Part shown: piece after piece, positions 1 to 44,274 of the stretch
Numbering within the stretch: the stretch's first letter is position 1
Layout: each line of letters starts with the position of its first letter
Source of the DNA: a virus
Taxonomy: Duplodnaviria; Heunggongvirae; Uroviricota; Caudoviricetes
Direction: 5' to 3' (one strand)
IMG/VR virus record: IMGVR_UViG_2684622670_000009
Span: 20,476-84,475 of that record
DNA: 64,000 nucleotides
Made by a program: the position numbers and the translations under genes
The notes under the pieces: generated by a model
What the model was told of the DNA's origin: nothing
What the model saw: only the letters and a program-made list of their open reading frames with translations
The model's database searches: none

Positions 1-1285
1 TCTTTGATGCTTCCTCTATAGTCGCAGCCCCCTTATCAAGCCGCATACGCCCTGATTTTACAGCTTCTGCCGCCTGAATATTCGCGAAAGCGCGCATATC
101 GAAATAAAGGCTTTTATCTTCGCGGCTGTGCATCTTTTTACCCCAGCGGATACGCTGGACGGTAATACCATAGCGTTCGTACATCAGATCAGCCGTCGAT
201 TTCCCCAAGCCATCGCCATCAATAGCTATGGTTATGTTCGGGAACCGTTCTGGGTTACATTCTGCGAAAATCTTGGCGGCTAACTGCGTTTCTGTAACGT
301 CTGTGTATTCCAGCATACGATAGTTGATTACACGGCGTTTATTTCGCTGGCCGGACACCATCATGATATTAATAACGGACTTATCTCGTCCTGTACCACC
401 AGCAACGTCAACACATGCAACCCAGCCCCATCCTTTGGCAATCTTGACCTTTCGCCGCGTCGCCCGCTCAACCTCATCACGACCAAGAAGAAAACCATCT
501 TGAGATTTGGGAAATTCCCCACGTACTTTGATCATGTACATGGGGTTATCACGACCGCCATACTCCGCAAGTTTTGCTCGTATAAATTTTGCATCTACAA
601 GCGGAGATTCTTCACTATTCAGTACTATCGCAGTAAACAATCCATCAGGATTTCCCGGGCGAATAGCTAGTCTGTGGTGTGAATCGTAGAAATAGCCTGA
701 AGGTCGCGTAGGCTGGGAAAGAAGCAGAATACGGTTATCCTTACCGGTCAGCGCACCTGTTATCACACTGAATGCTTTATCACTCACACCCGACGCTTCG
801 TCGATGATATACAAGAGATGATCGGCGTGTTCACCAGCCAACGCCTCCTCATTTCCGGGGCGACAGGACTTTATCAATATTGTCCAAACACCCTTGCCAG
901 TCACCTCAAAAAAAGACGTTTCTGTAAGAATGAAATACTTCGACAACCACGGGAATCTGCTAACAGCAGTAGCCCAATTGTTCTTTATGTATTTGAAAAT
1001 ACCATCAAGGACTTGCTGTCTTTTGTTAGCGACCAGAATGACGCGAGCGCCGGGGAAAAACATGATGAAGAGTATTGCAATGATACTCGTCATATCCGAT
1101 TTACCAGTACCATGGCCGGAGGTCACACTTGTCCAACTGCCGTCCTGCTGCGTGGACTCAATGATCTCATCCTGCTGCCAGGTTGGTGTCTTCCCAAACA
1201 ACACATCAGCGGCCGCAATCCAGTCATAACGATATAGCGCCACCAGCTCGCGCCAACGTGGGTCCGTTACGCAACTTCTGGCCAT
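1..1285 (-). CDS. pacB: Terminase large subunit PacB, N-terminal ~428 codons (gene leaves the window)
   Basis: Absent from the ORF track because it has no stop in the window. ATG at 1285 overlaps the pacA stop. Translation [22 protein letters not shown]...[19 protein letters not shown] (Walker A-like) matches my memory of P1 PacB. Confidence 0.9.
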
Positions 1286-2478
1286 TAATCATCATCCCCG
1301 TACAGTTTGCGGGTAACTTCTTCGTCTTCCTCCTCGTCTTCGTCCAGATCCTGTTCAAGCCATGCTTCGTTTGATATGCCTTCCGCATCGACATCACCAT
1401 AACCACCTGTATCGACGATATCGGCAATTTCTTCTCTACGATGCTCAATCCACAATGCGGCATCAGCGCGGCGACTGGCGGCCCGTTCTCGCGCGATTTT
1501 ATCCAGATCTTCAAGTGATGGAGCGCCAGATGCTGTTTGGTTTTCCTCATCATCGGTATTGGTCTTAGGAGCACGCAGATCGGCTTTGATTTGCTCCAGC
1601 ATCAGGGGCGGCACTTTTCCTCCATGCGCCTCGATGAATTCAGCCGCTTCCAGCACTGACCAGTTATTTTCACGCTTTCGTTCGTATGCCAGCTTAACAA
1701 TGCCAGCTTGCCCCATAGATAAAGCGTGCTTTTCCGCCTCCCGGCTTTCTTTTCGATAGTTATTCCGGATGCTGTAAATGGTGTTGATCAGGCTGCTTAT
1801 CTGCGCGGAACAGCTGTTTAGCATGCTCGCGATACGGTATTCAGGCGGAGTACCTTCATCATCGTCTTTTTGCTGATCGCGCATTTCCTGCACCAGGCGA
1901 ATACACGTATCCCTGGCGTTCTCCAGCATAAGGAGATGAGAAAGAGACTTTTCCAGAAGGGTGGTCTCCAGAACATCAGCCCCGGACCGACGCAACATAG
2001 CGCGCGCAGCCTTCCGCGCTTCAACGTTATCTATCAGGTAATCGCCAGCTTCGAATTCAAAGCGCTCACCATCATCATCCAGGGTGTCGCGTTCCAGGCG
2101 ATCACGTAAGGTCCGGTGGGCGCGGGTGATCACGTCATGATCATCTGAACGATCTTTTATGCGCTTATTTTGGCGCTTCGCGTTCTCGACTGCGGCACTG
2201 ACAACAGCATTAACCCTTTGTTTTCTCACCATTTCAGCAGCAATATGATCACCTGTACGTTGATCATTAGCGTGATCAATGATCATGTTTTTTAGTGGCT
2301 TCCTGACAGGCTTATTTGGCTTACGGCTGTCCGCTGTTCCGGTGTCTTCTTTGAATGCACGGAGATAACGACGTGCGGTGTTTGGGTTGAGATTAAACTC
2401 GGCGGCATATTGTGCGATGGTGTAACCACCATCTCGCGCCAGGCGAGCAAAATTCTTCTTGTGATCGTCCCAGGTCAC
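1285..2478 (-). CDS. pacA: Terminase small/pac-recognition subunit PacA
   Basis: 397-aa ORF starting [42 protein letters not shown] (HTH). It contains the pac hexamer clusters and has an acidic C-terminus. Same length as P1 PacA. Confidence 0.95.
2099..2285. promoter_or_regulatory. pac: pac packaging site (Dam-sensitive TGATCA/G hexamer clusters inside pacA)
   Basis: One side has TGATCA at 2127 and 2138 plus CGATCA (TGATCG on the other strand) at 2099. The other side has four TGATCA at 2246, 2261, 2273 and 2280. This fits the known 3+4 hexamer layout of P1 pac. Confidence 0.7.
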
Positions 2479-2513
2479 TTATGCTTCCTTTCGTAAAAAC
2501 TCTTTTTGACGCG

Positions 2514-2537
2514 AGGGTAACGAAAGTCACATGTCAA
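2514..2537 (-). promoter_or_regulatory. Possible Lpa-dependent late promoter upstream of pacA
   Basis: Minus strand reads TTGACATGTGACTTTCGTTACCCT. It resembles the motif seen at 17266, 38847, 53799 and 62070, but the -10 (TACCCT) is weak. Confidence 0.3.
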
Positions 2538-2563
2538 AAGGCCCGGAACGGGCAAGCAATCAA

Positions 2564-3016
2564 TCAGATACGTGCGGATGTGGCATTACCGTAATGACGG
2601 TGCTGACGGGCCACCTTATTGAAAAGTTGACGCGCCATTACCCAAGGCTGGTGCTCCCGGCGTTCCTTTTCGTCCTGCGTCATATAGAGTTCGTTCTGGA
2701 GTTTTTCATCAAACCGGCGCGGAGCGCGGCTACGGCGAAAGAATTCAGGATTCAGAGAGTGGATCTGAAATCTACGTGGGCGTGTACTGTCATCAATCAA
2801 AACAGACGAATACTTAGACACAGCGATAGCCTTTAAGCGCAGATAAACATCGCGCTTATCGACATCCAGATGCGGGTATTCCTTTTCAAGAATTGCTGCG
2901 AGTTCTTTCGCTGATAGAAGAGATTTAGTGCGGATCATGTAATCCGCAATCTCGTACGATGTTATTCGTGAGTGATTTATTTCCATGAAGTGGCGTCCCT
3001 GCCAGTTAAGTAACAT
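2564..3016 (-). CDS. lpa: Late promoter activator Lpa (gp10)
   Basis: 150-aa ORF between pdcB and pacA, as in P1. A C1 operator lies just upstream. Confidence 0.8.
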   Translation of the reverse strand: MLLNWQGRHFMEINHSRITSYEIADYMIRTKSLLSAKELAAILEKEYPHLDVDKRDVYLRLKAIAVSKYSSVLIDDSTRPRRFQIHSLNPEFFRRSRAPRRFDEKLQNELYMTQDEKERREHQPWVMARQLFNKVARQHRHYGNATSARI

Positions 3017-3086
3017 CCTGTCACCTACTGATTAGCCCATGTCAACTAATCAACGTGGAATATAATACCCTCGATTAAAGAAATAG

Positions 3087-3103
3087 CAATACATTAGAGC
3101 AAT
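3087..3103 (-). promoter_or_regulatory. C1 repressor operator upstream of lpa
   Basis: Minus strand ATTGCTCTAATGTATTG. The first 11 nt are identical to the C1 operator consensus ATTGCTCTAATAAATTT. Confidence 0.6.
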
Positions 3104-3104
3104 T

Positions 3105-4148
3105 TTATCTAACGCTCGACGAGTGACTTGTGATAGCGCCGACTCCAAGCGCGTAATCAAAGAACAATCGTTGATGCATCGCCAGCCTACCGTGCGTCTT
3201 CTCCCAATTATCGCGGTCACGCTCAATATCACGCTGGCATGACTGGCACAGAGGAATTGCGTAAATGTCATGCGCGCATAATCGACTATGACGAACGATA
3301 TAAGGCGTAATGTGAGCGCCAGCTCCCGCCGCTCCACACCCACAGCATGGACGGGAAGCAACAAAGTCCATGTACTCAGGTAATTTTAGCGATTGCAGTT
3401 TTGGTATTTTGAAATGCGCCATGCCAGGGTCGGAGTCAACATCCACAGGGCATACTTTTGCACGCATCAGCGCGGCGCGTTCTTCCATCATCTGAACATA
3501 TGCTGTAGCGCGATCGTCATACGGGCGAATATCCGCCTCTTTCAGAGGTCCGCTATCCTGCGTTGCGGCTTTCATCTTATTTATTGATATACGGCAAACT
3601 TCTTCCGGCATCAGGTGCATCATGTTGCGCATGAAAGCCCACCAGCACAGTTCCTGAATACTTAAATCATGGCCATCTGAAAGCCCCATTTCCTGACGGG
3701 CGACATCCAGTATCCAGTTAACGCGATTATTATGCAGCGTTTCTTTCAGCTCATTAAAACCACGCATCCGGTAATGGTTATCGTGATGCCAGCACAACAA
3801 CACCGCGCTATTGTCTCGTTCTGCGTGGACAATATGGTTGTCACACCAGCTACGATCTGCGGCCTGGCATTGCCCCTCTTTCCTGCGCAACCACGCCAAC
3901 AGCGAGTCAATTCCACCAATACGGCGAAACAGTTCATCGCTGTTAAAAAACGGCTGCAACGCCTCATTTGTTGCCATGGTTTGCTCGGTAACAACGAGGC
4001 CGTCTTCCATGTGCTCGATTAACTCACGCGGCACCGGCTCCATAATAAATTTACGGCCAGCCTCCACCAGCTTTCTGACCTCCTGATCCACTTTGAACGT
4101 GGCGAGGCCAAGCTCTTTCTGTACAAAGGGAGTAATTACGGCTTTCAC
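3105..4148 (-). CDS. pdcB: Cys/His-rich protein at the P1 pdcB (post-doc) position
   Basis: 347-aa ORF with CCGCG and CQSC clusters. Assigned by synteny doc-pdcA-pdcB-lpa. Confidence 0.6.
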
Positions 4149-4175
4149 ATCACACCTTTCATCACTGATTGGGCT

Positions 4176-4376
4176 TTATCTGCTGCCCGGCATTCTCTGT
4201 TTAAGCACAACCATTTCCTGACGGCATAACACAGCAATAGCTGTCCTGGCACCAATTTGCTTACCAACCAGGTATTGCTTTACCTCGCGGCGACTCACGC
4301 CATCAAGAAGCATCTTTAACGCTTCACGGGACAATTTGTTGTATTTACGTGCCATTAATCTACTCCGCGGAACCAT
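4176..4376 (-). CDS. pdcA: Small basic protein at the P1 pdcA position
   Basis: 66-aa ORF whose start overlaps the doc 3' end by 17 nt. Assigned by synteny only. Confidence 0.5.
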
Positions 4377-4740
4377 ACAATCTACGTAACGTGTCGGCGA
4401 CAGAAGATACAGATATCTCTCCGGTCGCAGCCCCTACGGTAAGGTCTGCCAGTTCAGGTGAATCAAATACCTGCACCCCGTTACGGCGTAGAAATAGCAG
4501 CGCACTGTTTAGCGCGGTACGCTTATTGGCATCATTGAATATATGCCCTCTCGCTGTAGCCACCAGGTAGGTGGCGGAGACTTCGAAAAGGTCGGTGATC
4601 TCTTCGTAGGCAACTCTGGCCTGAACTCTCCCGATAATGGCCTCTGCCCTACCCGGATCTGACATTCCCGGCAGGCCGCCGTAGCGGTTTATATTCGCAT
4701 CATGAAGCGCAATAAGTTCTTCCGGTGATATATGCCTCAT
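4360..4740 (-). CDS. doc: Doc toxin (Fic-fold kinase) of the phd-doc addiction module
   Basis: 126 aa, [22 protein letters not shown]...[19 protein letters not shown] (Fic-type motif). Start overlaps the phd stop. Confidence 0.95.
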
Positions 4741-4961
4741 TATCGGTTAACCAGTTCCTTGTTGGTGGAGTCCAAGGTGTCAAACAGGGATGCAAATTCA
4801 GCATCCAGCGCCGCTTTTTTGTAGGCTTCGAAAGTAGCCTTGCTGACAATTACTGCTGGCTCACGGCCTCTGCGGGTGATTTCAACCTCTTCCCCGGCCT
4901 CAACATTGTTGAGCACTTCAGAAAGGTTGCCGCGCGCGGTACGGAAGTTAATGGATTGCAT
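4740..4961 (-). CDS. phd: Phd antitoxin
   Basis: 73 aa, [49 protein letters not shown]; matches P1 Phd. Confidence 0.95.
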
Positions 4962-4967
4962 AAATAC

Positions 4968-4995
4968 CTCGTGTACTCGTTATGTGTACACAATT
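4968..4995. promoter_or_regulatory. Probable phd-doc operator palindromes
   Basis: GTGTAC at 4971 and the palindrome TGTGTACACA at 4984-4993 lie immediately upstream of phd. Confidence 0.35.
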
Positions 4996-5137
4996 ATAAA
5001 CTTCACAGGCATAAAGCACCAGCACTTTGCGGCTTAACAAACCTCTAGGCAGGTCATTCGTAGCCTAATGTCCGAACTGCTAAAGCATCCAAGTTGCTGT
5101 AGAATCACCGCCAATTACATAAGCCTGAAATAAGTGG

Positions 5138-6700
5138 ATGAAAATGACAAGTATTCAACAACGTGCAGAGCTTCATCGTCAAATCTGGCAAATTGCTAAC
5201 GATGTCAGGGGTTCGGTCGATGGATGGGATTTTAAGCAATACGTTCTGGGCGCACTTTTCTACCGTTTTATCAGCGAAAATTTTTCCAGCTATATTGAAG
5301 CCGGGGATGACAGTATCTGTTATGCGAAACTGGATGACAGCGTAATTACTGATGACATTAAAGACGATGCTATCAAAACTAAAGGCTACTTCATCTACCC
5401 CAGTCAGCTTTTCTGCAACGTAGCGGCGAAAGCAAATACCAATGACAGACTGAATGCAGATTTAAACAGCATCTTCGTTGCTATCGAAAGTTCTGCTTAC
5501 GGTTATCCTTCAGAAGCTGACATCAAAGGTTTGTTTGCTGATTTCGATACCACCAGTAACCGCCTGGGTAACACCGTTAAAGATAAAAATGCCCGCCTGG
5601 CTGCGGTTCTGAAAGGGGTTGAAGGGTTAAAACTTGGTGACTTCAACGAACATCAGATTGACCTGTTCGGTGATGCCTATGAGTTCCTGATCTCTAACTA
5701 TGCGGCAAATGCCGGTAAGTCAGGCGGCGAGTTCTTTACACCGCAGCACGTCTCTAAGCTGATTGCACAACTGGCTATGCACGGGCAGACCCACGTTAAC
5801 AAAATCTACGACCCGGCAGCAGGCTCCGGTTCGCTGTTGTTGCAGGCTAAAAAACAGTTTGATGACCATATCATCGAAGAAGGTTTTTTTGGTCAGGAAA
5901 TCAACCATACGACCTATAACCTGGCGCGTATGAACATGTTTTTGCACAACATCAACTACGACAAGTTTGATATCAAGCTGGGCAATACGCTGACTGAACC
6001 GCACTTCAGAGATGAAAAACCGTTTGATGCCATCGTTTCTAACCCGCCGTATTCGGTGAAATGGATTGGCAGCGATGACCCGACGCTGATTAACGATGAA
6101 CGTTTTGCCCCGGCTGGCGTTCTGGCCCCCAAATCCAAAGCTGACTTTGCGTTTGTATTACATGCGCTGAACTATCTTTCTGCCAAAGGTCGTGCTGCGA
6201 TTGTTTGCTTCCCGGGTATTTTTTACCGTGGCGGTGCGGAGCAGAAAATCCGTCAGTATCTGGTCGACAATAACTATGTCGAAACCGTGATTTCACTGGC
6301 ACCGAATCTGTTCTTTGGCACCACCATTGCCGTCAATATTCTGGTGTTGTCTAAACATAAAACGGATACCAACGTTCAGTTTATTGACGCCAGCGAACTG
6401 TTCAAAAAAGAGACTAACAACAACATTCTGACCGATGCTCATATCGAACAGATTATGCAGGTATTTGCCAGCAAGGAAGATGTTGCTCATCTGGCGAAAT
6501 CTGTCGCGTTTGAGACCGTTGTCGCTAATGACTATAACCTGTCGGTGAGCAGCTATGTGGAAGCGAAAGATAACCGCGAAATTATCGATATTGCTGAGTT
6601 GAACGCAGAGCTGAAAACCACGGTCAGCAAAATCGACCAGTTGCGTAAAGATATTGATGCGATTGTGGCTGAAATTGAAGGCTACGAGGTGCAGAAATGA
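5138..6700 (+). CDS. hsdM: Type IC restriction-modification methyltransferase subunit HsdM (EcoR124-like)
   Basis: 520 aa with the N6-adenine MTase motifs DPAAGSGS and NPPY. Near-identical to my memory of EcoR124I HsdM ([35 protein letters not shown]...). Confidence 0.95.
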
Positions 6701-7977
6701 GCGAGATGAGTTATCTGGAAAAATTGCTGGATGGGGTTGAGGTTGAATGGAAAACACTAGGGAAAGTGCTTAAACGAACTAAAGGCACAAAAATAACCGC
6801 TGGGCAGATGAAAGCTCTTCACAAAGATAATGCGCCGCTTAAAATTTTTGCAGGAGGAAAAACAGTAGCCTTTGTTGACTTTAAAGATATACCAGAGAAC
6901 GATATTAATAGAGAGCCATCGATTATTGTTAAATCCAGAGGTATTATCGAATTCGAGTATTACGATAAACCATTCTCTCACAAAAATGAGATGTGGTCAT
7001 ATCACTCAAATAATGATGCGATAAGCATAAAGTATATTTATTACTTCCTAAAAATAAATGAAGGATATTTCCAGAAAATTGGGGGTAAAATGCAAATGCC
7101 ACAAATTGCAACTCCTGATACAGATAAGTTTGAAGTTCCAATCCCTTGCCCGGACAATCCGGAAAAATCCCTTGCCATCCAGTCCGAAATTGTTCGGATT
7201 CTGGATAAATTTACTGAGCTTACAGCAGAGCTTACAGCAGAGCTTACAGCAGAGCTTAGCATGCGTAAAAAACAATACAACTACTATCGCGACCAGTTGT
7301 TAAGTTTTGATGAGGAGCAGGAAAAACCTATTTATCTGGAAAAATTGCTGGATGGGGTTGAGGTTGAGTGGAGAACTTTAGGAGAAATAGCAGTAATTTA
7401 TGATGGAACTCACAAGACTCCCAAATATACGGCTTCCGGAGTTCCTTTCGTTAGCGTGCAGAATATCAAAAATCTATACGGGACAAATAAATATATTTCA
7501 CCTGAGGATTTCAAAACATACAAGAACAAACCGCGCAAGCATGATTTGTTTATGACGAGGATTGGCGATGTCGGTACTTGTGCTATTGTGGAGGATGATA
7601 GACCATTAGCATACTACGTAACACTTGCATTAATACGAATAAATCAACAAATTGCTGTACCAGGATTCATTCGTTATTTAATCGAAAGCAGATTTGGTAA
7701 GGCCGAATTGTATAAAAGAACGCTTATACACGCAGTACCAATGAAGATTAATTTAGGCGAAATTGGTAAAGTTGCTGTACCAATCCCCTGCCCGGATAAT
7801 CCAGAAAAATCCCTTGCCATCCAGTCTGAAATCGTTCGGATTCTGGATAAATTCGACACACTGACCAACTCCATCACTGAAGGTCTCCCGCGTGAAATCG
7901 AGTTGCGCCAGAAACAATACGAATACTACCGTGATTTACTGTTCAGTTTCCCGAAACCTGAAACTGTCAGTAATTAA
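6697..7977 (+). CDS. hsdS: Type IC specificity subunit HsdS with non-EcoR124 target recognition domains
   Basis: 426 aa; ATGA overlap with hsdM. The conserved type IC ends ([18 protein letters not shown] ... [38 protein letters not shown]) flank two divergent TRDs and a central TAEL repeat. Confidence 0.95.
7222..7257 (+). repeat. 3 x 12-bp tandem repeat ACAGCAGAGCTT (TAEL x3) in the hsdS central spacer
   Basis: Three perfect copies, preceded by the related ACTGAGCTT (TEL). In EcoR124I versus EcoR124/3 the TAEL copy number (2 versus 3) sets the N6 versus N7 gap of the recognition site. Confidence 0.9.
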
Positions 7978-8098
7978 TTGACCATTGCTACCGATCGGGC
8001 CACCTTAACACCCGGTCAGTATATAGACTATTTTTTACGCGCCGGAAGTCACTCTTAACGCCCTTCCGGCTCTTGCCAGGCGGCACAAAGGATGCGCT

Positions 8099-11000
8099 AT
8101 GACTCATCAAACACACACCATTGCTGAATCCAATAACTTTATCGTCCTTGATAAGTACATCAAAGCTGAGCAAACAAGCGACAGCTACCAGAGCGAATCG
8201 GACCTGGAACGTGAACTGATTCAGGACCTGCGGAATCAGGGTTATGAATTTATTTCCGTAAAATCACAGTCGGCAATGCTGTCCAATGTTCGGGAACAGC
8301 TTCAGAGCCTCAATGGTGTGATGTTTAATGACAGCGAGTGGCGGCGCTTCACGGAGCAGTATCTGGACAACCCGAGTGATGGTATTCTGGATAAAACCCG
8401 TAAAATCCATATCGACTATATTTGCGACTTTATTTTTGATGACGAGCGACTTGAGAACATCTATTTGATAGATAAAAAGAATCTCATGCGCAATAAGGTG
8501 CAGATTATCCAGCAGTTTGAACAGACGGGTTCTCACGCTAACCGTTATGACGTCACGATCCTGGTTAATGGCTTACCACTGGTGCAAATCGAACTGAAAA
8601 AACGCGGCGTGGCGATTCGTGAGGCTTTCAACCAGATACATCGTTACAGTAAAGAGAGTTTTAACAGCGAAAATTCCCTGTTTAAGTATCTGCAGCTGTT
8701 CGTCATTTCCAACGGCACTGATACCCGTTATTTTGCCAACACAACAAAGCGCGATAAAAACAGTTTTGACTTCACCATGAACTGGGCTAAATCAGACAAT
8801 ACACTGATTAAAGACCTCAAAGACTTTACCGCTACCTTTTTCCAGAAACATACTCTGCTTAATGTTCTGGTGAACTACAGCGTTTTTGACAGCAGTCAGA
8901 CGCTACTGGTAATGCGACCGTACCAGATTGCTGCCACCGAGCGCATTCTGTGGAAAATTAAGAGCTCCTTTACAGCGAAGAACTGGTCAAAACCGGAAAG
9001 CGGTGGGTATATCTGGCACACCACGGGTTCCGGTAAAACCCTGACCAGCTTTAAAGCCGCGCGTCTGGCAACAGAACTGGACTTTATTGATAAAGTTTTC
9101 TTTGTGGTCGACAGGAAAGACCTCGATTACCAGACCATGAAGGAATATCAGCGTTTTTCGCCAGACAGCGTCAACGGCTCGGAAAATACCGCAGGCCTTA
9201 AACGAAATCTGGATAAGGACGATAACAAAATTATCGTCACTACTATTCAGAAACTCAATAACCTGATGAAAGCAGAAAGCGACCTGCCTGTATATAATCA
9301 GCAAGTGGTGTTTATATTTGATGAATGCCACCGCAGCCAGTTTGGAGAAGCTCAGAAAAACCTGAAGAAGAAATTCAAACGCTATTATCAGTTTGGTTTT
9401 ACCGGCACCCCTATTTTCCCGGAAAACGCCTTAGGCTCAGAAACAACCGCCAGCGTATTTGGTCGTGAATTGCATTCGTATGTAATTACCGATGCGATTC
9501 GTGACGAAAAAGTGCTCAAATTCAAGGTGGACTACAACGATGTGCGGCCACAGTTTAAGTCTTTAGAGACAGAAACTGACGAGAAAAAACTGAGTGCGGC
9601 TGAAAATCAGCAGGCGTTTCTTCATCCCATGCGTATTCAGGAAATCACGCAATATATTCTGAATAATTTCCGCCAGAAAACCCATCGTACCTTCCCTGGC
9701 TCAAAAGGTTTTAATGCTATGTTGGCAGTGAGCAGCGTGGATGCCGCGAAAGCCTATTATGCGACGTTTAAACGGTTACAAGAAGAAGCCGCTAATAAAT
9801 CGGCTACCTATAAACCGCTGCGTATTGCGACAATCTTCTCCTTTGCCGCCAATGAAGAACAAAATGCCATTGGTGAAATTTCCGATGAAACTTTTGATAC
9901 CAGCGCAATGGACAGCAGTGCTAAAGAGTTTCTGGACGCTGCAATTCGTGAATATAACAGCCATTTTAAAACTAACTTTAGCACCGACAGTAACGGTTTT
10001 CAGAACTACTATCGTGATTTAGCCCAGCGGGTTAAAAATCAGGATATCGATCTGCTAATTGTCGTGGGGATGTTTTTAACCGGCTTCGATGCTCCAACAT
10101 TGAACACGCTATTCGTCGATAAAAACTTGCGTTTTCACGGCCTGATGCAGGCATTTTCCCGCACCAACCGTATTTATGATGCAACTAAAACCTTCGGTAA
10201 TATCGTCACTTTTCGGGATCTGGAACGCTCAACTATTGATGCCATAACGCTGTTTGGTGACAAAAACACCAAAAATGTGGTGTTAGAAAAGAGTTATACA
10301 GAGTATATGGAAGGCTTTACTGATGCTGCTACTGGTGAAGCTAAACGCGGCTTCATGACAGTAGTTTCAGAACTGGAACAACGGTTCCCTGACCCTACCA
10401 GTATTGAAAGTGAAAAAGAGAAGAAAGACTTCGTTAAACTGTTTGGCGAATACCTGCGTGCCGAGAACATCCTGCAAAACTATGATGAATTTGCCACGCT
10501 AAAAGCCCTGCAACAAATCGATCTTAGCGATCCTGTTGCGGTAGAAAAATTCAAAGCAGAACATTATGTGGATGATGAAAAGTTCGCTGAATTGCAAACA
10601 ATTCGTCTCCCTGCTGATCGCAAGATTCAGGATTATCGTTCTGCCTATAACGATATTCGCGACTGGCAGCGCCGTGAGAAAGAAGCTGAGAAAAAAGAGA
10701 AATCAACCACTGACTGGGATGACGTAGTTTTTGAGGTCGATTTGCTGAAGTCTCAGGAAATAAACCTGGATTATATCCTTGGACTGATTTTCGAACACAA
10801 CAGACAAAATAAAGGCAAGGGCGAAATGATCGAAGAGGTCAAACGCTTAATTCGTTCAAGCCTAGGGAACCGTGCTAAAGAGGGCCTGGTGGTCGATTTT
10901 ATTCAGCAAACGAACCTGGATGATTTACCGGACAAAGCCAGCATCATTGACGCATTCTTTACGTTTGCTCAACGCGAACAGCAACGTGAAGCAGAAGCAT

Positions 11001-11215
11001 TGATAAAAGAAGAAAATCTCAATGAAGAGGCAGCAAAACGCTATATTCGCACGTCTTTAAAACGCGAATATGCCACCGAAAATGGCACAGAATTAAACGA
11101 AACATTACCAAAACTTAGTCCGTTAAATCCGCAATATAAAACGAAAAAACAGGCAGTTTTCCAGAAAATCGTCTCGTTTATTGAGAAGTTTAAAGGCGTA
11201 GGCGGAAAAATATAG
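8099..11215 (+). CDS. hsdR: Type IC restriction endonuclease/translocase subunit HsdR
   Basis: 1038 aa. Contains a PD-(D/E)xK region, helicase motifs ([15 protein letters not shown]) and the EcoR124-like length. Confidence 0.95.
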
Positions 11216-11294
11216 CCCAATTCGTGTTTTTCTTGCGGGTTCTTAATTAAACCCGCAAGAGACCGTGGGGTTCCAAATGGCTAATATACTCCCC

Positions 11295-11381
11295 TTACCC
11301 ATGCGCGACAATGCTGCCAAAAGTGATAGAAAACAGCCAGAAATAGATCGCGGCCATAATGATTTTGAATGCCGTGTTCAT
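11295..11381 (-). CDS. 28-codon hydrophobic ORF (hypothetical small membrane peptide)
   Basis: MNTAFKIIMAAIYFWLFSITFGSIVAHG. AGGAG lies 8 nt upstream of the ATG. Below the ORF-track size cut-off; no homolog recognised. Confidence 0.3.
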   Translation of the reverse strand: MNTAFKIIMAAIYFWLFSITFGSIVAHG

Positions 11382-11409
11382 ATCTTCAGCTCCTGTGATT
11401 GATTGGATA

Positions 11410-11443
11410 CATGCCGCGCCCCTTGCGGCATGTTTTTATTTTT
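11410..11443 (+). terminator. Rho-independent terminator (probably the real hsdR terminator)
   Basis: 8-bp stem CATGCCGC/GCGGCATG followed by TTTTTATTTTT. Confidence 0.7.
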
Positions 11444-11465
11444 ACCTTCTCTGCTTTAAATATCA

Positions 11466-11482
11466 AGATTTATTAGAGCAAT
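11466..11482 (-). promoter_or_regulatory. C1 operator at the pap 3' end
   Basis: Minus strand ATTGCTCTAATAAATCT (16/17 to consensus). Overlaps the pap stop codon. Confidence 0.65.
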
Positions 11483-24479: not shown

Positions 24480-24760
24480 TAACACTCCACCCTGGTGTGT
24501 TGAATGTCAGATATAATCGGCATACTCAAATCACTCCTAACGATATGAGTCATCACCAGAAAATCAGGATTAATGCGCCGGACTCTTCCCGGCTGTCACA
24601 CCGAATCGCCAGGATGGTGAATCCGCAGTCCGACGCTATGAACGGGGCTTGCACATTCCGGCTACCTGGTTTGTTGCCTGAGCTAGGGGAAAAGGTAACC
24701 CCTTTAACGTCACCAGACCGCTAACGACGCATGTGCCAGACGCCGTGTTACAACCAAATG

Positions 24761-24836
24761 TGGTGACCCCTACCGGACTTGAACCGGTGACCGTGCGATT
24801 ATGAGTCGCCAGCTCTAACCACTGAGCTAAAGGGCC
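24761..24836 (-). tRNA. trnI: tRNA-Ile2 type (anticodon CAU, ileX-like)
   Basis: GGCCCTTTAGCTCAGTGGTTAGAGCTGGCGACTCATAATCGCACGGTCACCGGTTCAAGTCCGGTAGGGGTCACCA. Full cloverleaf, encoded CCA, close to E. coli ileX. Confidence 0.85.
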
Positions 24837-24839
24837 GGA

Positions 24840-24947
24840 TTACTGTTTCCTAAGTGCTTCAATGGCGCTAACAACGCCGCCTACAACTATGGCAACAATG
24901 ATAATGAGAACAATTGGATACTTGTCAGCAAAATCCCAGAAGCCCAT
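24840..24947 (-). CDS. 35-aa membrane peptide (P1 tciC position)
   Basis: MGFWDFADKYPIVLIIIVAIVVGGVVSAIEALRKQ. Its ATG overlaps the stop of the upstream small gene. Confidence 0.5.
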   Translation of the reverse strand: MGFWDFADKYPIVLIIIVAIVVGGVVSAIEALRKQ

Positions 24948-25111
24948 CACTGATCCTTCGAAGCTGTTTTAAATATCGGCCATACCAATGTTACAGCCAC
25001 TGCCACCAACGCCCCGTCCGATAAAACTGACAGGATTGTGCTGGTGAAATCCACCAGCACGGACAGCAAGAGAAAACCAATGGCGATTGCGATACGTGCC
25101 TTGCTTGCCAT
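24947..25111 (-). CDS. 54-aa membrane protein (P1 tciB position)
   Basis: MASKARIAIAIGFLLLSVLVDFTSTILSVLSDGALVAVAVTLVWPIFKTASKDQ. TAATG overlap with tciA. Confidence 0.5.
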   Translation of the reverse strand: MASKARIAIAIGFLLLSVLVDFTSTILSVLSDGALVAVAVTLVWPIFKTASKDQ

Positions 25112-25545
25112 TACAGATAATCTTCCACACGAAGACCTAAACGACGGCCTACTTCTTCCAGTACTTTGTGTTCTGCTGGCTCGATTTCACCGTCCGCTTC
25201 TGCAATCGTCAGCATGTTAACGAATACTTCTTCCGCTTCTTTTGGGTCGTTTTTGATATCTTCAATTTCGCGAAGGATATTCATGCGACCAACACGGAAG
25301 CCAGCTTCCAGTTGCTCGGTAAAGCGGGTAATTGTTGCGGTAATTTCGTTACCAAAATGACTAAGACGCGGATTAGAGCGGATAAGCTGATCAAGTTTCG
25401 CTGTTTCTTCTTTTTTGATTTCACCATCAGCGGCAGACACCAACAAACAGCCACCGATAATGGCCTCCATCAGATCGCGATTCTCAACTTTTTTCAGCTC
25501 TACTTTTGCAGAAGCGACTTTCTTGCCGAACAATTTACCGAACAT
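25111..25545 (-). CDS. tciA: TerB-family tellurite-resistance-like protein TciA
   Basis: 144 aa with two ADGEI repeats characteristic of TerB. Confidence 0.8.
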   Translation of the reverse strand: MFGKLFGKKVASAKVELKKVENRDLMEAIIGGCLLVSAADGEIKKEETAKLDQLIRSNPRLSHFGNEITATITRFTEQLEAGFRVGRMNILREIEDIKNDPKEAEEVFVNMLTIAEADGEIEPAEHKVLEEVGRRLGLRVEDYL

Positions 25546-25694
25546 TGGTTATCCCTCAATAAAAGTGACATATTTATTAGATTGCGGTGCCGGGTGCCTC
25601 CCGGTGACGTTAACCAGTTAACAATTAACGCCGGAATGTTTAATCATCAAGGAGGATTGTTTTAACTGTTCCGCGTGCGCTTAGCCGAATTCAC

Positions 25695-25806
25695 CGCAAT
25701 GGTAAGAGCACTTGGCTGGCTGGGCGGCGATGACGCCTGTACGCATTTGGTGATCCGGTTCTGCTTCCGGCATTCGCTTAATTAGCCAAATACTCTTAAC
25801 GTTGCG
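25695..25806 (-). repeat. Long-hairpin module D (degenerate copy), immediately 3' of tRNA-Ser
   Basis: 5' arm CGCAACGTTAAGAGTATTTGG pairs with 3' arm CCAAGTGCTCTTACCATTGCG. The arms are homologous to modules A-C. An internal CCGG-AAGCAGAA-CCGG hairpin is present. Confidence 0.45.
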
Positions 25807-25807
25807 C

Positions 25808-25894
25808 TGGTGGAGAGTAATGGAATCGAACCATCATCGCTTGCGCAATGGGACGGTTTTCAAGACCGCTTGAGCGCCATACTCCCTACTCTCC
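25808..25894 (-). tRNA. tRNA-Ser (anticodon UGA), type II with a long variable arm
   Basis: 87 nt. Acceptor GGAGAGT/ACTCTCC; anticodon arm GCGGT-CTTGAAA-ACCGT; variable arm ATTGC-GCAA-GCGAT; T arm GATGG-TTCGATT-CCATT; encoded CCA. Confidence 0.8.
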
Positions 25895-26047
25895 AATGAT
25901 TGTGGTGGTCGGTGCTGATCTCCGACTGCGCCTCTTTTTTTCATAGCCCATAAGGCCGGTCAGTGCGCTTGATGACTGAGGCATCGATATTTACTACGCC
26001 GCCTCGTTGCCATAGGGCGGACTTGCGCGCCAGCAACGCGCATTCAC

Positions 26048-26134
26048 CACAACGGAAAGAGCATTCACGTCTCGCATCGCGGGAAAAAGCCCACGGTAGA
26101 GAGTCGAACTCTACAAATGCTCTTACCTGTTGTG
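26048..26134 (-). repeat. Long-hairpin module A (87 nt)
   Basis: CACAACAGGTAAGAGCATT...AATGCTCTTTCCGTTGTG. Contains a T-arm-like GTAGAG-TTCGACT-CTCTAC hairpin. Confidence 0.55.
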
Positions 26135-26262
26135 TTGTGATGACCGGTGCTGATCTCCGGCTTGCGGTTATTTCAGACTCTCACGGGCGTTTAATTGCCC
26201 CGCCGGACAGCTCTTTTCCGCAATAGCTGCAATGTCTTTCGCGCATCAGCCTGCGCATTCAT

Positions 26263-26349
26263 CACAACGGTAAGGGTACTTCGGAGGGATTCGAACCCTC
26301 TGCCAAGCTCGGCGATCTCCGACGTCGCAAAATACCCTTACCTGTTGTG
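26263..26349 (-). repeat. Long-hairpin module B (87 nt), immediately 3' of the tRNA-like gene
   Basis: CACAACAGGTAAGGGTATTTTG...CGAAGTACCCTTACCGTTGTG, a stem of about 21 bp with one bulged A. Contains GAGGG-TTCGAAT-CCCTC. Confidence 0.55.
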
Positions 26350-26350
26350 C

Positions 26351-26483
26351 TGGTGCCGGTTAACGGATTCGAACCGCTGACCTCTGGCCTAACATCGAAT
26401 CGTTGTCATTTGACCAGCAAGGCTGTCTACCGAAGTAGAAACGATGCTTTGGCTCTCGTGCTCTCCCACTGAGCTAAACCGGC
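26351..26483 (-). ncRNA. tRNA-like gene (Thr-type scaffold) with a ~57-nt insert replacing the anticodon arm
   Basis: GCCGGTT-TA-GCTC-AGTGGGA-GAGC-A...AGGTC-AGCGG-TTCGAAT-CCGTT-AACCGGC-A-CCA. Total length is 133 nt. The insert holds a TCTAC-TTCG-GTAGA hairpin and CATCG/CGATG pairing. I could not fold a canonical 7-nt anticodon loop. Confidence 0.5.
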
Positions 26484-27219: not shown

Positions 27220-27249
27220 ATATTACACTAATAAATTTATTAGAGCAAT
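27220..27249 (-). promoter_or_regulatory. Bivalent C1 operator overlapping a sigma70 promoter
   Basis: Perfect ATTGCTCTAATAAATTT on the minus strand (27249-27233). An inverted, overlapping ATTACACTAATAAATTT sits on the plus strand (27222-27238). Promoter: -35 TTGCTC (27248-27243), 17-nt spacer, -10 TAATAT (27225-27220). Confidence 0.7.
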
Positions 27250-30200
27250 ATAGCAATAACGTCATGAGCTACACCACGAGTGTTCCCCTTACAAGACACA
27301 GAACGTCTGGCAAAAAGAGGTTCCACTCTGAAGCCACTGTCTTGGTAAAGCTCCCTGATGTTTGGCGCACCACTATTAGTAATGAGGATCTTTGCACCTC
27401 GGCGATGAGCATCCATTAGCAGAGATACCAGGCGTTTTTGCTCTTCAAACTTAAAGTCATGACCGGAATAGTTTGTGAACCCCTCTGTATTGGGGAGCGG
27501 TTCATACGGAGGATCGCAAAAGATGACATCTCCTTCTCCGGCAGCTTCAATCACCGCTGAAAAATCACCACATACAAACTCAGAACGCCCTTCAGCACCG
27601 AGGAAGGCTTCCATCTCCTGTAATGGGAAATACGGAGTTTTATACTTCCCATAACCAACATTAAACTCACCGGCCTGGTTGTAACGCGTCAATCCGTTAA
27701 AACAATGTCGGTTCAGGAACAAAAACGCTGCTGCACGATGTAAATCATCATAGGCTTGTTTGTTAAACGCATTCCGTACTGCCAGGTATCCTTCCTGTGT
27801 GTTGTAGTCCTGGAAAAACCGATGCGCCAGAGTGATAAGTGAATGTCCCTCACGTTGCAGAGTCCTGTAAAAGTTAATCAGGTCAGCATTCACATCATTT
27901 AGCAGATTTTCTTGATATCCGGCATTTATGAAGACAGCTCCGCCACCAACGAAAGGCTCGATCAGGCGCTTTCCGTCAGGTAAATGCCTAAAGATTTGTT
28001 CAAGAACACCAAATTTTCCGCCGACCCATTTAAATATGGGACGGTCAAATTCTGCCGTTAGCTTAACTCTCCGTTCTGTTGCTTCATGATTTTTTGCCTG
28101 CTGATATGCAGCCTTAATAATCCGCTCACCAATCCATCGCATTACTGGTATCGCCATGCTATTGCCGATCGCTTTGTAACGCGGTCCGTCAGCTGCAAGC
28201 ATCGCGGCCTCTTCTTCGCTTAAATCTGGATAGTGATTGCGAAGGTATGCCAGTTCATCTGAAGTAACTTTTTTACGCTTTTCCGTCGGGATCAACGTAT
28301 GCCCATCAGGAAAACCTTGCAGTCTTTCACATTCGACAGGGGTAAGACGGCGGACAGCTACTGCTGCGTTTCCTACGTCATAGCAAACGGCTGTTGTATT
28401 TTTGGCCATTAAAGATGGTGAAGTATTCTTAGTTGCAGCATGTTGTGTACCGCTCATACGCTCAGGAAAAGCCAATGTAACAAGATGCTCATGGCTTTCT
28501 TGCTCACGTGCCCGCAATGTACCATGCCCTTCTGACCAAAAACCTGCTCCTGTGCTGCTAAAAACTGCAAGGTCAGTGGCATCTTTAAAGTCTCTCGCCT
28601 TTACTGTCGATGCGGTTTCATCGCCAATATATTCCCCAAATGCCGCCATCCTGAAAGCGTTTACGGCTTTCGTCGATTTCATACCGGGGGTAATGTCAGC
28701 GTGTAGGCATGGATTTAGGCTTTCGCCACTGATTGCAGCGCCATTTGCAATAATGGCGGAAGCGATTTCCTTCTTTTTTCGGCTCGGCGCAATATTCCGG
28801 CGCACGCCTTCGAACTCAAAAAGTACCGTTGCGGGATCGAGGTCTGTTCGAGCACTTGCGACAACAAACACGCGTCGGCGTCGTTGTGCCACTCCGAAGT
28901 ATTGGGCATCAAGGATTCTCCAGGCCACCTTTCGCTGCGGTCCATAAATACAACCACACTGCGGCCACTTTGGAGCATGGCAACCGGTTTTGCCATCCCA
29001 CCGCCAGAACGCGTTACTTTTTCCTGATTCAGGTCGATCACCTGGTTCAAATGGCGCATCTTCTCCAGCCAATCCGGCAAGGAAACATCCGAAGGCGTTA
29101 TCTGCCGATGACAAGACTCCTGGGACATTTTCCCAGACGATAACGGCTGGTTTGAGAAATGACTCAGCCCGTTTGTCGTCAATTGCATTTGCAAGCTCCA
29201 CATACTTTAAAGTTAGCGCGCCACGCTCATCATCAAGCCCACCACGTAATCCCGCGATACTGAATGCCTGACAGTTATGGACCACCGCACCATTGAGGAT
29301 ATAGGAATGATCACCTTCGACTTCTATGTTGTATACAGTATCTAGGCCTACCGATTTAAACTCTTTGACTGTTCGTAAAAGCATTCCATGAGCCAATCTT
29401 GATTTACGTGACAATTTCTGCGGGCAGATTGTTACCTGATAATAATTCCGTTGATTTACCACGCGATCCTCGATCACTTTTTTGGGCTCAACTTCAATAA
29501 AGCTGACCGAAGAAACATAACCACAAGTCTGTGACACCCCCGCAACGCCCCAAGCAAGCGCAGGACTAACACTATTAATTCTAAATCCCGCTTTACCACT
29601 TGGTGTCCCATCAGTATCAAGATAGCCTTGTAAAAACACATGACGCAATGGATGCGACATCACCCATGCAGGGATACGCTTAGCATGGCTTAACTCGCCA
29701 AAATGTTCATTAAGCCAATTGGCATAACACGTATCATTCAAGGTTACTTTGATGCTCCCTCGGATTTCTCTTGCCACGGAAAATATGTTTTCTGGTATGC
29801 GACAATGAAACTTTCTCAATTTCTGGCAATTTATGCCAAAAACAACCGCCTTCTTAGATTTACCTCTCCATCTCCTAATATATCCATCGCCAACATAAGC
29901 GCCCGCAAGATACATAGCCTGTTCTTCAGACAAGAACCGAGAACAAATATCTGGAGATGCAATATTGAAATTAGTTAGAGCGCACCATTGATATCCTGGC
30001 ATATCACATGCTGCTCGCCATTCCGGTTCAGACAACAACTCTCTCTTAAAATATGTGCCATTTTTCCGGGTGTTTTGGGCTTTCCACCGAACAGCCAGGA
30101 AGGGATGGTCATTGGTTGTTCTTATACCTAAAGGCTGCCCAACGGCATTAAGTAACCCCGTATTAGCTATTTTTGAACCAACTCTTTTTACTTGTTGTAA

Positions 30201-30527
30201 CCGCCCGAGATGACTGACTACGTAATCGCCAGGGCAAACATCTTCTATTGGTTTATAACCATTTTTACAAAGAACCATATGCCCCGCGGTAAAACATGGT
30301 GTTCCCCCGACGAGCACGTCAGGGGATTCGATTTCCCCAGCCAGGACTTTTTTGGCAAGTTTAGTCATGTCGCCAAGGTTGGCGACATGGGGCCAGCGGT
30401 GCGCAAGAACGGCCGATGGAAAAGACTCGATTTCAGCAAACCACGCCGGACGCATACCCAACGGTTCCCAGGCAATACTCGCGGCTTCAATTCCACTGCA
30501 AACAGATCCATAGCACAGCTCTTTCAC
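27240..30527 (-). CDS. dmt: Bifunctional DNA methyltransferase Dmt (N-terminal C5-cytosine MTase interrupted by an intein; C-terminal Dam-like N6-adenine MTase)
   Basis: 1095 aa. C5 motifs: I ([10 protein letters not shown]), a split motif IV (GGTP/CQAFS), ENV, and QRRRRVF-type. C-terminal Dam motifs: KWVGGK, FVGGGAV, DPPY. Confidence 0.9.
29274..30296 (-). mobile_element. Intein with LAGLIDADG homing endonuclease domain (aa 78-418 of Dmt)
   Basis: Starts CFTAGHMVL (Cys1). Block [17 protein letters not shown] motifs [11 protein letters not shown] and [11 protein letters not shown]; ends GAVVHN followed by Cys+1. Excision restores GGTPCQAFS. Confidence 0.85.
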
Positions 30528-34034: not shown

Positions 34035-34142
34035 TTATCCACAGCATAGATCCAATAAACAGATCCAAAAGAGAACCCTAGAAGATCCAAATAAGATCCC
34101 GGATCGCTGCAGGCCGCGCCATGTCTGGCCTGAAACGTGATC
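34035..34142. promoter_or_regulatory. Plasmid origin (oriR-type) left part: DnaA box plus GATC cluster
   Basis: TTATCCACA at 34035-34043. GATC at 34049, 34062, 34084, 34095, 34102 and 34139, mostly within AGATCC heptamers as in P1 oriR. Confidence 0.7.
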
Positions 34143-34143
34143 A

Positions 34144-34250
34144 ACATTGACTATATGCGATTTTATGTTGACTGTACACGATTTATTGTTGACTACACGC
34201 GATTTTATGTTGACTATACGCGATATAAACATTGACTGTACGCGATTTTA
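34144..34250 (+). repeat. Five origin iterons (incC-type) at 21-22 bp spacing
   Basis: The TTGACT(A/G)(T/C)A(T/C)(A/G)CGAT core starts at 34147, 34168, 34189, 34210 and 34232. Confidence 0.8.
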
Positions 34251-34326
34251 AAGCCTGAATATTCACAGCTGTTGATAACAGCCATCCAAATTGACGTCAG
34301 GCCGCGCCACACATGGAGAAACCACG

Positions 34327-35211
34327 ATGCCGGAAGAAAGTAAAGGCTTCCTTAGCGTTGAAGAAGTTGCAGGAAATACAGGAGAAATCCACAGCCTGAA
34401 ACCCAATAACAACAGCACTATACAACCCATCGCTTTGTTGCGCTTAGGTGTGTTTGTGCCAACCTTAAAATCTACCAATGTGGCACTACGTCGCGGATCG
34501 TCAGTTACTACAAACACAACGAACGCAACCGAAGAACTATCAAGCCTCAAAATTGTTGAGCAGGAAGGCTATGAGGGAATTGAAATTCATGGTCCACGCC
34601 TGGATATGGATACTGATTTTAAGGTGTGGGTGGGCATAACCTCCGCGTTGTTTGACTATGCACCTGATGATGACGGTATAATTACCCTGCCATTCTCCGA
34701 GTTTGCCGATCGATGCGGCTATCCACGTAAGCGCCTTTCAAAGGCGTTCCGTAAAAGTATTGATGACTCTCTGACACGCATTCAGCAGACAGTTGTCAAA
34801 TTCCGCTTCCCGGCGGCAAAAGGTCATCTCAATAACATTAACGTCAACTTGTTGGCATATAGCAGCCTGAATACCGAGCTTGATGTTATCGAGATCCAGC
34901 CGCAGAAACAGCTATCTGAACTTTACTATGTTGACTATAAGCGAATCCTGAAGCTGAAGATGCTGGATAAGCTCGGGCGCAAAGAGACGGCCAAGGTACT
35001 GTATACATTCTTTGAGGCTCTACCTGCCAACCCAGCACCTGTCAGCATTGAGCGCCTTAGAGCAAGGCTTAACCTCAAATCATCCGTTAGCGTGCAAAAT
35101 AGCGTTATCAGAAAAGCCATGAAAGATTTGGAAGCTATTGAATATCTTAAATTTTCAGAGATAAAAAACGGCAGGAAAATCGGCTTCCAGATCCATAAGC
35201 GCAATCCATAA
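34327..35211 (+). CDS. repA: Iteron-binding replication initiator RepA (P1 RepA family, divergent)
   Basis: Shares blocks with P1 RepA (VQPVALMRLGVFVP-like IQPIALLRLGVFVP, ITGPRLDMDTDFK-like IHGPRLDMDTDFK) but is otherwise divergent. Start taken at ATG 34327 after GGAGA. Confidence 0.85.
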   Translation: MPEESKGFLSVEEVAGNTGEIHSLKPNNNSTIQPIALLRLGVFVPTLKSTNVALRRGSSVTTNTTNATEELSSLKIVEQEGYEGIEIHGPRLDMDTDFKVWVGITSALFDYAPDDDGIITLPFSEFADRCGYPRKRLSKAFRKSIDDSLTRIQQTVVKFRFPAAKGHLNNINVNLLAYSSLNTELDVIEIQPQKQLSELYYVDYKRILKLKMLDKLGRKETAKVLYTFFEALPANPAPVSIERLRARLNLKSSVSVQNSVIRKAMKDLEAIEYLKFSEIKNGRKIGFQIHKRNP

Positions 35212-35212
35212 T

Positions 35213-35480
35213 ATTGACTATATGCGATAGCGAGAAGTTGACTATAGGCGACATTCGTTGACGCTGGTGGATTTTTGCTGGCGTCAATATTCTGCAAGTC
35301 GCTATTGAGATGGCTTTTAGGGTCATTTCATCGCGTATAGTCAACGTTTCTCCCGACAATATCTTACATAGTCGATCTTTGGTGGAGTTAAATCGACTAC
35401 AGTCAACTTTTGACTGTGGTCATATCGCGCATAGTCAACTATTCACATTAACCTTCGCGCATAGTCAACATTTGCGCGGT
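35213..35480. repeat. incA-type iteron cluster (copy-number control)
   Basis: At least seven full or partial copies of the TTGACTATAnGCGA iteron. Two to three are direct (35216, 35238, 35258); the others are inverted (e.g. CGCGTATAGTCAAC, CGCGCATAGTCAAC x2, GACTACAGTCAAC). Confidence 0.7.
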
Positions 35481-35503
35481 TCTCATCAAGCAGTGGTATT
35501 GAT

Positions 35504-36313
35504 ATGCAAGAAGAGAAACAACACTACCTCTACGTTCTGGTGCCGGAGAACGGAGATACTTTTAAAATCGGCATTTCATGTGGTCCATTGGCACGGTTTA
35601 AAGGGCTACAAGTGAGTCCCGATATTGCGCTTTCACGAATCTATCGTGGTACGCGTTTGGCAATGGTTAATCTTGAGCGGGCTTTACACGCAACCTTTTT
35701 CCCCTGGAATGCGCCGTGGGAGAAAAGCGCCGGTGGCGGGCATACTGAATGGTTTACACGAGAGTGTCTTGATAAGGTTTTGGCTCATATCGAATATCTA
35801 AATGATATGTGGGGAGGGATTCTCGAGCTCATTAAGTCGAATGATTTACTTCAGCGTCCAGTAGATGCTGCTCGCTCTTTCGAAAAAGAGCTGGATGTTA
35901 CTTCTATCGTGACTTTCAAAGATGACGCAGGAATGAGGGATGTGGCTTATGTCTCCATATCTGGCTATGAACCGGACGCGATCCGCGCTCAATGTGAATT
36001 GCTGAAAGCAATGTTTATGCTTCGGACTAAATATCCCTGGGAGACAGGGCGGGTGTGCTTCCCTATGGAAGAGTTAACCGCCACCATTGATTCCCAGCTT
36101 TACCACGATAATCCAGAGAAGTTTTTTAGCCTTTTAGCCGGTAATGGGCTTAACTGTGTGTCCGGGCTGGGGCGAAGTAGAATCCAACATGCCTCGCTCT
36201 TCGGTCCCTTTTTTTACGATCGACACGGGTACTTTGAGGCTGAACTTCCGGCGCTTACGCGTGCTATAGATACTATCGATTTCGAACGATTATTCGCTGC
36301 TCTTAGCAAATAA
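35504..36313 (+). CDS. T5orf172 / GIY-YIG-like domain protein with an unknown C-terminal domain
   Basis: 269 aa with YLYVLVPENGDTFKIGIS...LERALHATF...GGGHTEWF, the T5orf172-type pattern. No equivalent gene between incA and parA in P1, as I recall it. Confidence 0.6.
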   Translation: MQEEKQHYLYVLVPENGDTFKIGISCGPLARFKGLQVSPDIALSRIYRGTRLAMVNLERALHATFFPWNAPWEKSAGGGHTEWFTRECLDKVLAHIEYLNDMWGGILELIKSNDLLQRPVDAARSFEKELDVTSIVTFKDDAGMRDVAYVSISGYEPDAIRAQCELLKAMFMLRTKYPWETGRVCFPMEELTATIDSQLYHDNPEKFFSLLAGNGLNCVSGLGRSRIQHASLFGPFFYDRHGYFEAELPALTRAIDTIDFERLFAALSK

Positions 36314-36320
36314 CACTGAT

Positions 36321-36341
36321 GCCCCTGAACGGGGCTTTTTT
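36321..36341 (+). terminator. Rho-independent terminator
   Basis: GCCCC-TGAAC-GGGGC followed by TTTTTT. Confidence 0.75.
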
Positions 36342-36481
36342 GTGCCCTCCTTGTAACTATCAATCGTACAAAATGAACGAAACATGCAGAGAATGTTATG
36401 TACAAGCATCTACGCATACATTATTATTTTATGCAGCATTTTTAATTAAATTCAAAAATACAGCATAAAGGATGACTTTCG

Positions 36482-44250: not shown

Positions 44251-44274
44251 AAAGCTCCTTCGGGAGCTTTTTTT
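44251..44274 (+). terminator. Rho-independent terminator
   Basis: AAAGCTCC-TTCG-GGAGCTTT followed by TTTT. Confidence 0.8.

Follow-up and report, generated by a model that had tools for sequence, protein, structure and literature searches.

The closest described relatives of the locus considered here are the type IC restriction-modification (R-M) systems EcoR124I and EcoR124II of plasmids R124 and R124/3, the archetype of their class, together with EcoDXXI of plasmid pDXX1 and EcoPrrI of the prr locus, in which the gene order is hsdM-hsdS-prrC-hsdR. Type IC hsd loci, EcoPrrI included, are reportedly flanked by DNA of bacteriophage P1, to go by the title of Tyndall et al. 1997. We analysed a 64,000-nucleotide (nt) stretch of a P1-like phage-plasmid (positions 20,476 to 84,475 of IMG/VR record IMGVR_UViG_2684622670_000009; hereafter the window, whose numbering is used throughout), in which hsdM, hsdS and hsdR occupy the interval between the phd and pap genes of the P1 backbone. 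In the GenBank record of P1, positions 87969-88647 are noted as 98% identical to the sequence upstream of the EcoDXXI hsd locus, and positions 84263-84482 as 96-98% identical to the sequence downstream of the EcoDXXI and R124/3 hsd genes. The pmgT-humD segment is variable region 8 of P1-like plasmids in a 2022 survey (PMC9603915). The arrangement is thus already known, from Tyndall et al. 1997, the 2004 annotation of P1 and recent surveys of P1-like plasmids. As for specificity, the number of TAEL repeats determines the spacer length recognised by type IC enzymes, and one extra repeat converts GAA N6 RTCG to GAA N7 RTCG in the EcoR124I/II pair (PMC3874165).

Judging from its sequence, the segment 5038-11290 is very probably an intact type IC R-M operon of the EcoR124 family, which an Escherichia albertii P1-like phage-plasmid carries as accessory cargo at a site already known to vary, where it replaces pmgT-humD. 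The initial annotation had proposed that such a cassette stands in for the P1 block between phd and pap, with HsdM and HsdR nearly identical to those of EcoR124I, and Pfam, Protein Data Bank (PDB) and blastn comparisons bear out both statements. The cassette is made up as follows.

5138-6700, + strand: hsdM, type IC N6-adenine methyltransferase subunit, 520 amino acids (aa); its stop codon overlaps the hsdS start (ATGA).
6697-7977, + strand: hsdS, specificity subunit, 426 aa, Pfam Methylase_S.
7978-8098, + strand: hsdS-hsdR intergenic segment, 121 bp, with a promoter-like site at 8005-8034 from a scan that overall did no better than on shuffled sequences.
8099-11215, + strand: hsdR, motor and nuclease subunit, 1038 aa.

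The three genes are the intact + strand open reading frames (ORFs) called in the interval. HsdM matched Pfam N6_Mtase and HsdM_N (E = 7e-121) and, compared with PDB chains, proved identical to the EcoR124 M protein (7bst) at 518 of its 520 residues; the S-adenosylmethionine-binding motif DPAAGSG (residue 225) and the catalytic motif NPPY (residue 302) are both kept. HsdR, with Pfam domains HSDR_N, SWI2_SNF2, T1R_D3(-like) and EcoR124_C (E down to 1e-71, for EcoR124_C), aligned over its full length with EcoR124I HsdR (2w00) at 2292 bits and about 99% identity, nine substitutions being visible within the first ~1010 residues. Its nuclease residues D151, E165, K167, Q179 and Y183 are intact, as are Walker A K313 and the DECH box at 408-411 of the motor. 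PADLOC models for a type I methyltransferase, specificity subunit and restriction endonuclease were all matched on the cassette. An exact database match for HsdR was found in E. albertii (WP_059276278.1). Exact look-ups of HsdM and HsdS returned no entry in the protein collection, probably owing to start-codon choice or indexing, since hsdS is called on the source contig.

Membership in type IC is indicated by the gene order hsdM-hsdS-hsdR with a 4-nt hsdM/hsdS overlap and a separate hsdR 121 bp further on, by the similarity of HsdM and HsdR, by the conserved regions and TAEL repeats of HsdS, and by the intact catalytic residues. EcoR124 shares the order, the near-identity of HsdM and HsdR, and the HsdS conserved regions with their TAEL repeat; it also has P1-derived DNA downstream of hsdR, as noted in the P1 record. 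However, EcoR124 resides in a conjugative plasmid, whereas the cassette described here lies in a complete P1-like backbone. No prrC is present in the 121-bp spacer between hsdS and hsdR of the window, so that the locus, though of the same type IC family as EcoPrrI, is not of the prr type.

If the cassette works as EcoR124I is established to do, HsdS and two HsdM would form a methyltransferase that recognises a bipartite, asymmetric target set by two target recognition domains (TRDs) and methylates one adenine per strand. One HsdR and then a second would bind, and unmodified DNA would be translocated at the expense of ATP and cut at a distance. The lysogen would be protected in this way from incoming phages and plasmids. 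By the same analogy, hsdM and hsdS would be translationally coupled, and hsdR would form a separate downstream unit.

The position of the cassette was established by alignment to P1 (blastn against NC_005856). The window follows P1 in reverse orientation, P1 93006-36411 being covered in 9 collinear blocks at 92-98% identity, and this synteny and high identity outside known variable regions identify the backbone as that of a P1-like phage-plasmid (Punavirus). Window 1-5037 corresponds to P1 93006-87970 (98.2% identity) and window 11291-25080 to P1 84482-70688 (96.5%). As P1 homology stops at 5037 and resumes at 11291, the non-P1 segment is 5038-11290 (6,253 bp). The following features border it or lie at its ends.

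4360-4740 and 4740-4961, - strand: doc and phd, the P1 addiction module forming the left flank (Pfam Fic/DOC and PhdYeFM; 98% nt identity to P1).
4993-5021, - strand: promoter Pphd, retained, mapped from P1 87986-88014 through an ungapped alignment.
5038-5137, + strand: cassette leader, non-P1 DNA 5' of hsdM, kept to the same end (window 5039) in all hsd-bearing loci.
11216-11290, + strand: cassette tail, with a hairpin at about 11232-11259 read from the sequence.
11482-11988, - strand: pap, the right backbone flank.

The left breakpoint (5037/5038, P1 87970) coincides with the stop codon of P1 humD and lies 16 bp upstream of the -35 element of Pphd. The right breakpoint (11290/11291, P1 84482) lies five nt before the pmgT start. 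In P1, the segment displaced is 84483-87969, with the nine genes pmgT, pmgU, pmgV, upfM-O, hot, lxr and humD. The interval was first drawn as 5011-11443; the cassette within it is real, but the range extends into the backbone, by 27 bp at the left end and 153 bp at the right. The coordinates 87969 and 84482 noted in the P1 record are the breakpoints found here, and the P1-homologous flanks of EcoDXXI end at the same two positions. Homologous recombination in the conserved phd/doc and pap flanks would allow the cassette to pass between P1-like elements and other plasmids.

The hsdS product aligns with the EcoR124 S subunit in its conserved regions only (N-terminal, central and C-terminal). Three features within the gene, all on the + strand, matter for its specificity.

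About 6762-7124, + strand: TRD1.
About 7383-7766, + strand: TRD2.
7216-7258, + strand: 12-bp tandem repeat GAGCTTACAGCA in 3.6 copies, encoding (TAEL)3 in the central conserved region (Tandem Repeats Finder, 100% matches).

Neither TRD is related to any in EcoR124, which implies a specificity other than GAA N6/7 RTCG, and the central region, unlike that of EcoR124, contains a longer copy (13 residues) of the N-terminal conserved segment. EcoDXXI likewise has three TAEL repeats (PMC3874165); its TRDs are presumed to be different. Each TRD of the window is bracketed by direct repeats (6711-6761 with 7332-7382, 92%; 7125-7211 with 7767-7853, 89%), and new specificities could arise by TRD exchange through these repeats, as well as by gain or loss of a 12-bp TAEL unit. 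Other natural HsdS alleles in the protein database carry the same domains in other arrangements: the window's two TRDs in swapped order (protein P0016, on 31 contigs), TRD1 in both positions (P0019), TRD1 moved to second place beside a different first TRD (P0038), and further combinations exist. This allele set, compared at the sequence level, is consistent with modular TRD shuffling.

The window is 100% identical to contig BBVP01000027.1 of E. albertii GCA_001514785.1. A sister contig, BJWW01000143.1 (E. albertii GCA_008326765.1), is 99.1-99.5% identical at the nt level; its HsdR is identical and its HsdS has the two TRDs of the window. The sister contig and protein P0018, however, have one TAEL unit fewer (two versus three; 422 versus 426 aa), and this in-frame 12-bp unit is the sole indel between window and sister in the cassette. 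The window enzyme is therefore predicted to recognise the half-sites of the sister enzyme with a spacer one bp longer. That the three-repeat hsdS is a functional and recently arisen specificity variant of the sister's two-repeat allele, with the same half-sites and one bp added to the spacer, has in our view an even chance of being right. Two points weigh against the reading of the cassette as a whole. The TRDs showed no useful similarity to structurally characterised TRDs from which a recognition sequence could be read, and the count of three repeats comes from a short-read draft assembly, an independent Logan assembly being broken inside hsdS.

The same pair bears on the role of the system. 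Its main selected function might lie not in defence against phages but in competition between P1-like elements or in an epigenetic switch, with TAEL changes toggling specificity; sister elements would then restrict each other or reset the methylome. Two 99%-identical elements that differ by exactly one repeat unit, the perfect 12-bp array of 3.6 copies, and the precedent of EcoR124I/II all fit such a role. But the observations comprise just two states, from two strains, and three perfect TAEL repeats were found in none of the 120 nearest homologues, which argues that switching is not frequent. We regard a role of this kind as rather unlikely. No PLSDB record covered at least 80% of the window's hsdS.

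A second possibility is that the cassette, rather than an intact operon, is a silent or non-functional relic on a decaying, defective prophage-plasmid. Several observations lean that way and count against an active R-M operon. Compared with P1 and the sister, pmgS (near 12690, - strand) has lost 1 nt behind an A7 run and is frameshifted, so that it reads as two ORFs (12061-12633 and 12579-13322). An independent Logan assembly of run DRR017159 shows this break as well, which means either that pmgS has truly become a pseudogene in a defective prophage or that the homopolymer was misread in sequencing. Outside the window, on the source contig (locus L101, 18046-21194), ref encodes 150 aa versus 186 in the sister (locus L100), ulx 79 versus 146 aa, and darB is shorter; in the sister, pmgS, ref and ulx are all intact or longer than in the source contig. 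These truncations suggest decay of recombination and anti-restriction functions. With such signs of decay in the host element, expression of the cassette or selection on it could be relaxed. No promoter upstream of hsdM rose above the scan threshold in the leader 5038-5137, and the promoter scan gave 11 sites where 13.1 were expected from shuffles. Against these stand the three full-length hsd ORFs with all their catalytic motifs, an HsdR identical to the sister's, and a cassette whose only indel is an in-frame 12 bp. A relic is for these reasons improbable, and we retain the intact operon.

It had also been suggested that the element would possess a second type of R-M, should res and mod be present elsewhere on it. 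This did not hold. The mat-lxc slot of the source contig BBVP01000027.1, which lies outside the window, contains only a 132-aa ORF without Pfam match, and no res/mod. A tblastn search for Res was negative for both the window and NZ_CP099909.1, a complete relative of 97 kb that is likewise without res/mod. In IMG/VR, a Res relative occurred in only 10 loci versus 129 for Pap, and none of the 10 was on an hsd-bearing contig. These small samples suggest that hsd and res/mod may exclude each other. A second system, of the EcoP1I type III res/mod kind, was accordingly rejected for this element.

The arrangement doc-phd, hsdMSR, pap is shared by phages vB_EcoM-673R5 (ON470615.2) and phi456 (OR339795.1) and by plasmids such as NZ_CP099909.1, NZ_KX518745.1 and NZ_CP059290.1, which cover 84-96% of window 3000-13500 with 96-97.5% nt identity; their hsdS alleles, on the other hand, differ from that of the window. 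With at least 80% coverage of window 3000-13500 as the threshold, 208 PLSDB plasmids and two phages (vB_EcoM-673R5 and phi456) were retained. A 701-bp probe across the phd-hsdM junction, again at least 80% covered, detected the junction in 647 of 5,426 complete E. coli genomes (about one in eight). For IMG/VR, 80 loci were fetched by means of Pap, and 50 of them had a complete pap-phd interval: 19 intervals contained hsdRSM and 28 were of the pmgT type. One near-complete 95-kb P1-like contig (L019, IMG/VR 3300029516_000004) has in its phd-pap slot a cassette with prrC between hsdS and hsdR (396 aa; PADLOC PrrC, 6e-148), a phage-plasmid-borne locus of the EcoPrrI type.

Where hsd was absent, the slot contained P1-type genes among which Ea22-like, DUF551 and PAPS-reductase-like ORFs were scattered or, in two loci (L051 and L074), a gene for an invasin/intimin-like inverse autotransporter of 1,211 aa; none of these is a recognised defence gene. 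The interval had been seen as a hotspot for swapping defence genes. Its hsd content, in 19 of 50 intervals and once with prrC, supports this in part, but the other cargo is mostly not defence; the slot is a general cargo hotspot, and "defence hotspot" overstates the case.

To the right of the cassette, backbone signals have been retained that now face or precede hsdR. In neither the promoter nor the terminator scan did the number of sites exceed that from shuffled sequences, and only the long-stem terminator and the sites annotated in P1 were kept.

11295-11381, - strand: small ORF for a 28-aa hydrophobic peptide, MNTAFKIIMAAIYFWLFSITFGSIVAHG, in P1 backbone, with a good Shine-Dalgarno sequence; the P1 record has no annotation for it.
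11409-11443, + strand: terminator-like site, a 10-bp stem (6 G-C pairs) followed by TTTTATTTTT, in P1-homologous DNA.
11438-11482, - strand: PpmgT promoters, including the operator (annotated in P1 at 84293-84337; scan match 11466..11438).
11466-11482, - strand: C1 operator Op88/OpmgT, retained with the same sequence as in P1.

The right breakpoint lies 4 nt past the stop codon of the small ORF. The latter had no Pfam match and is open in 76 IMG/VR loci; a test for purifying selection counted 5 synonymous and 9 nonsynonymous substitutions. The strong hairpin at 11409-11443 is oriented such that it would stop hsdR transcripts before pap, and the C1-repressed PpmgT here faces into hsdR from its 3' end. 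The hairpin runs against pap-pmgT transcription, and in P1 there is no nearby convergent gene for it to terminate.

A + strand terminator fit to stop hsdR, in backbone that P1 has retained, might mean that the swap went the other way, the hsd arrangement being ancestral and the pmgT-humD block of P1 acquired later. It also agrees with this direction that the exact 3.75-kb interval of P1 was found in no IMG/VR locus surveyed. Composition points elsewhere: the hsd cassette is the outlier, with a G+C content of 43.3% (39% in hsdS) versus 46.5% in the replaced P1 block, 48-49% in the flanks and 47-49% in the backbone. Intervals of the pmgT type are, moreover, the majority (28/50). Finally, in three hybrid loci (L012, L026 and L031) hsdRSM has the left boundary seen in the window (5039), and some 1-2.8 kb with upfM-hot-like genes, lxr (in one locus) and humD separate it from phd. 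As hot, in one case lxr, and humD are kept beside hsd at the same boundary, the replacement of P1-type genes by hsd was probably stepwise. There is thus only a slim chance that the exchange ran in reverse, and replacement of pmgT-humD by the cassette is preferred.

The displaced genes themselves were searched for with tblastn. PmgT, PmgU, PmgV, Hot, Lxr and HumD had no match in the window or in NZ_CP099909.1, and the P1 genes are therefore taken as lost and not relocated, as the replacement first proposed implied. That they moved elsewhere on the element is very improbable: the source contig is ~10 kb shorter than the sister (84.5 versus 95 kb) and its first 11.7 kb are unread, but besides the negative tblastn searches nothing was found in the 21 kb read around pacA.

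Other differences from P1 were observed along the window. The remaining gaps in its alignment fall at regions 4-7 of PMC9603915. No P1 homology was found at 34130-36379 (repA/incA, a different replicon), 44274-46130 (rlfA-rlfB-pmgF) and 25081-26459 (tci/plp), blocks which match variable regions 6, 5 and 7, respectively, of that survey. The sim region of P1 is replaced (50088-53799, especially 50120-51422), and part of the replacement matches a stretch of NZ_CP099909.1 annotated as RNA-guided endonuclease of the TnpB family. The Dmt methyltransferase (27240-30527, - strand) has 1095 aa versus 754 aa in P1, owing to an intein (29274-30293) inserted exactly at the catalytic PCQ motif of the C5-cytosine methyltransferase half. 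Hint and LAGLIDADG domains are present in this intein, which begins with Cys and ends in His-Asn followed by Cys. The dmt gene of NZ_CP099909.1 is also long.

The one fresh detail of this locus, the difference in TAEL number between the sister plasmids, is a small further example of a mechanism already described. The practical value of the analysis lies in a refined coordinate map, in an element shown to be without type III res/mod, and in a sister pair one TAEL repeat apart, which could serve to test spacer-length switching outside the laboratory. The locus is a textbook case of a phage-plasmid-borne defence system spread by recombination in conserved flanks, and the arrangement explains the P1 sequences at the edges of the type IC systems first found on R124 and pDXX1. 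If the three-repeat hsdS is indeed a functional variant, wild P1-like phage-plasmids would still use the unequal-crossover switch of EcoR124I/II, and this switch, together with TRD swaps (P0016) and TRD duplications (P0019), would diversify specificity and raise barriers between sister elements.

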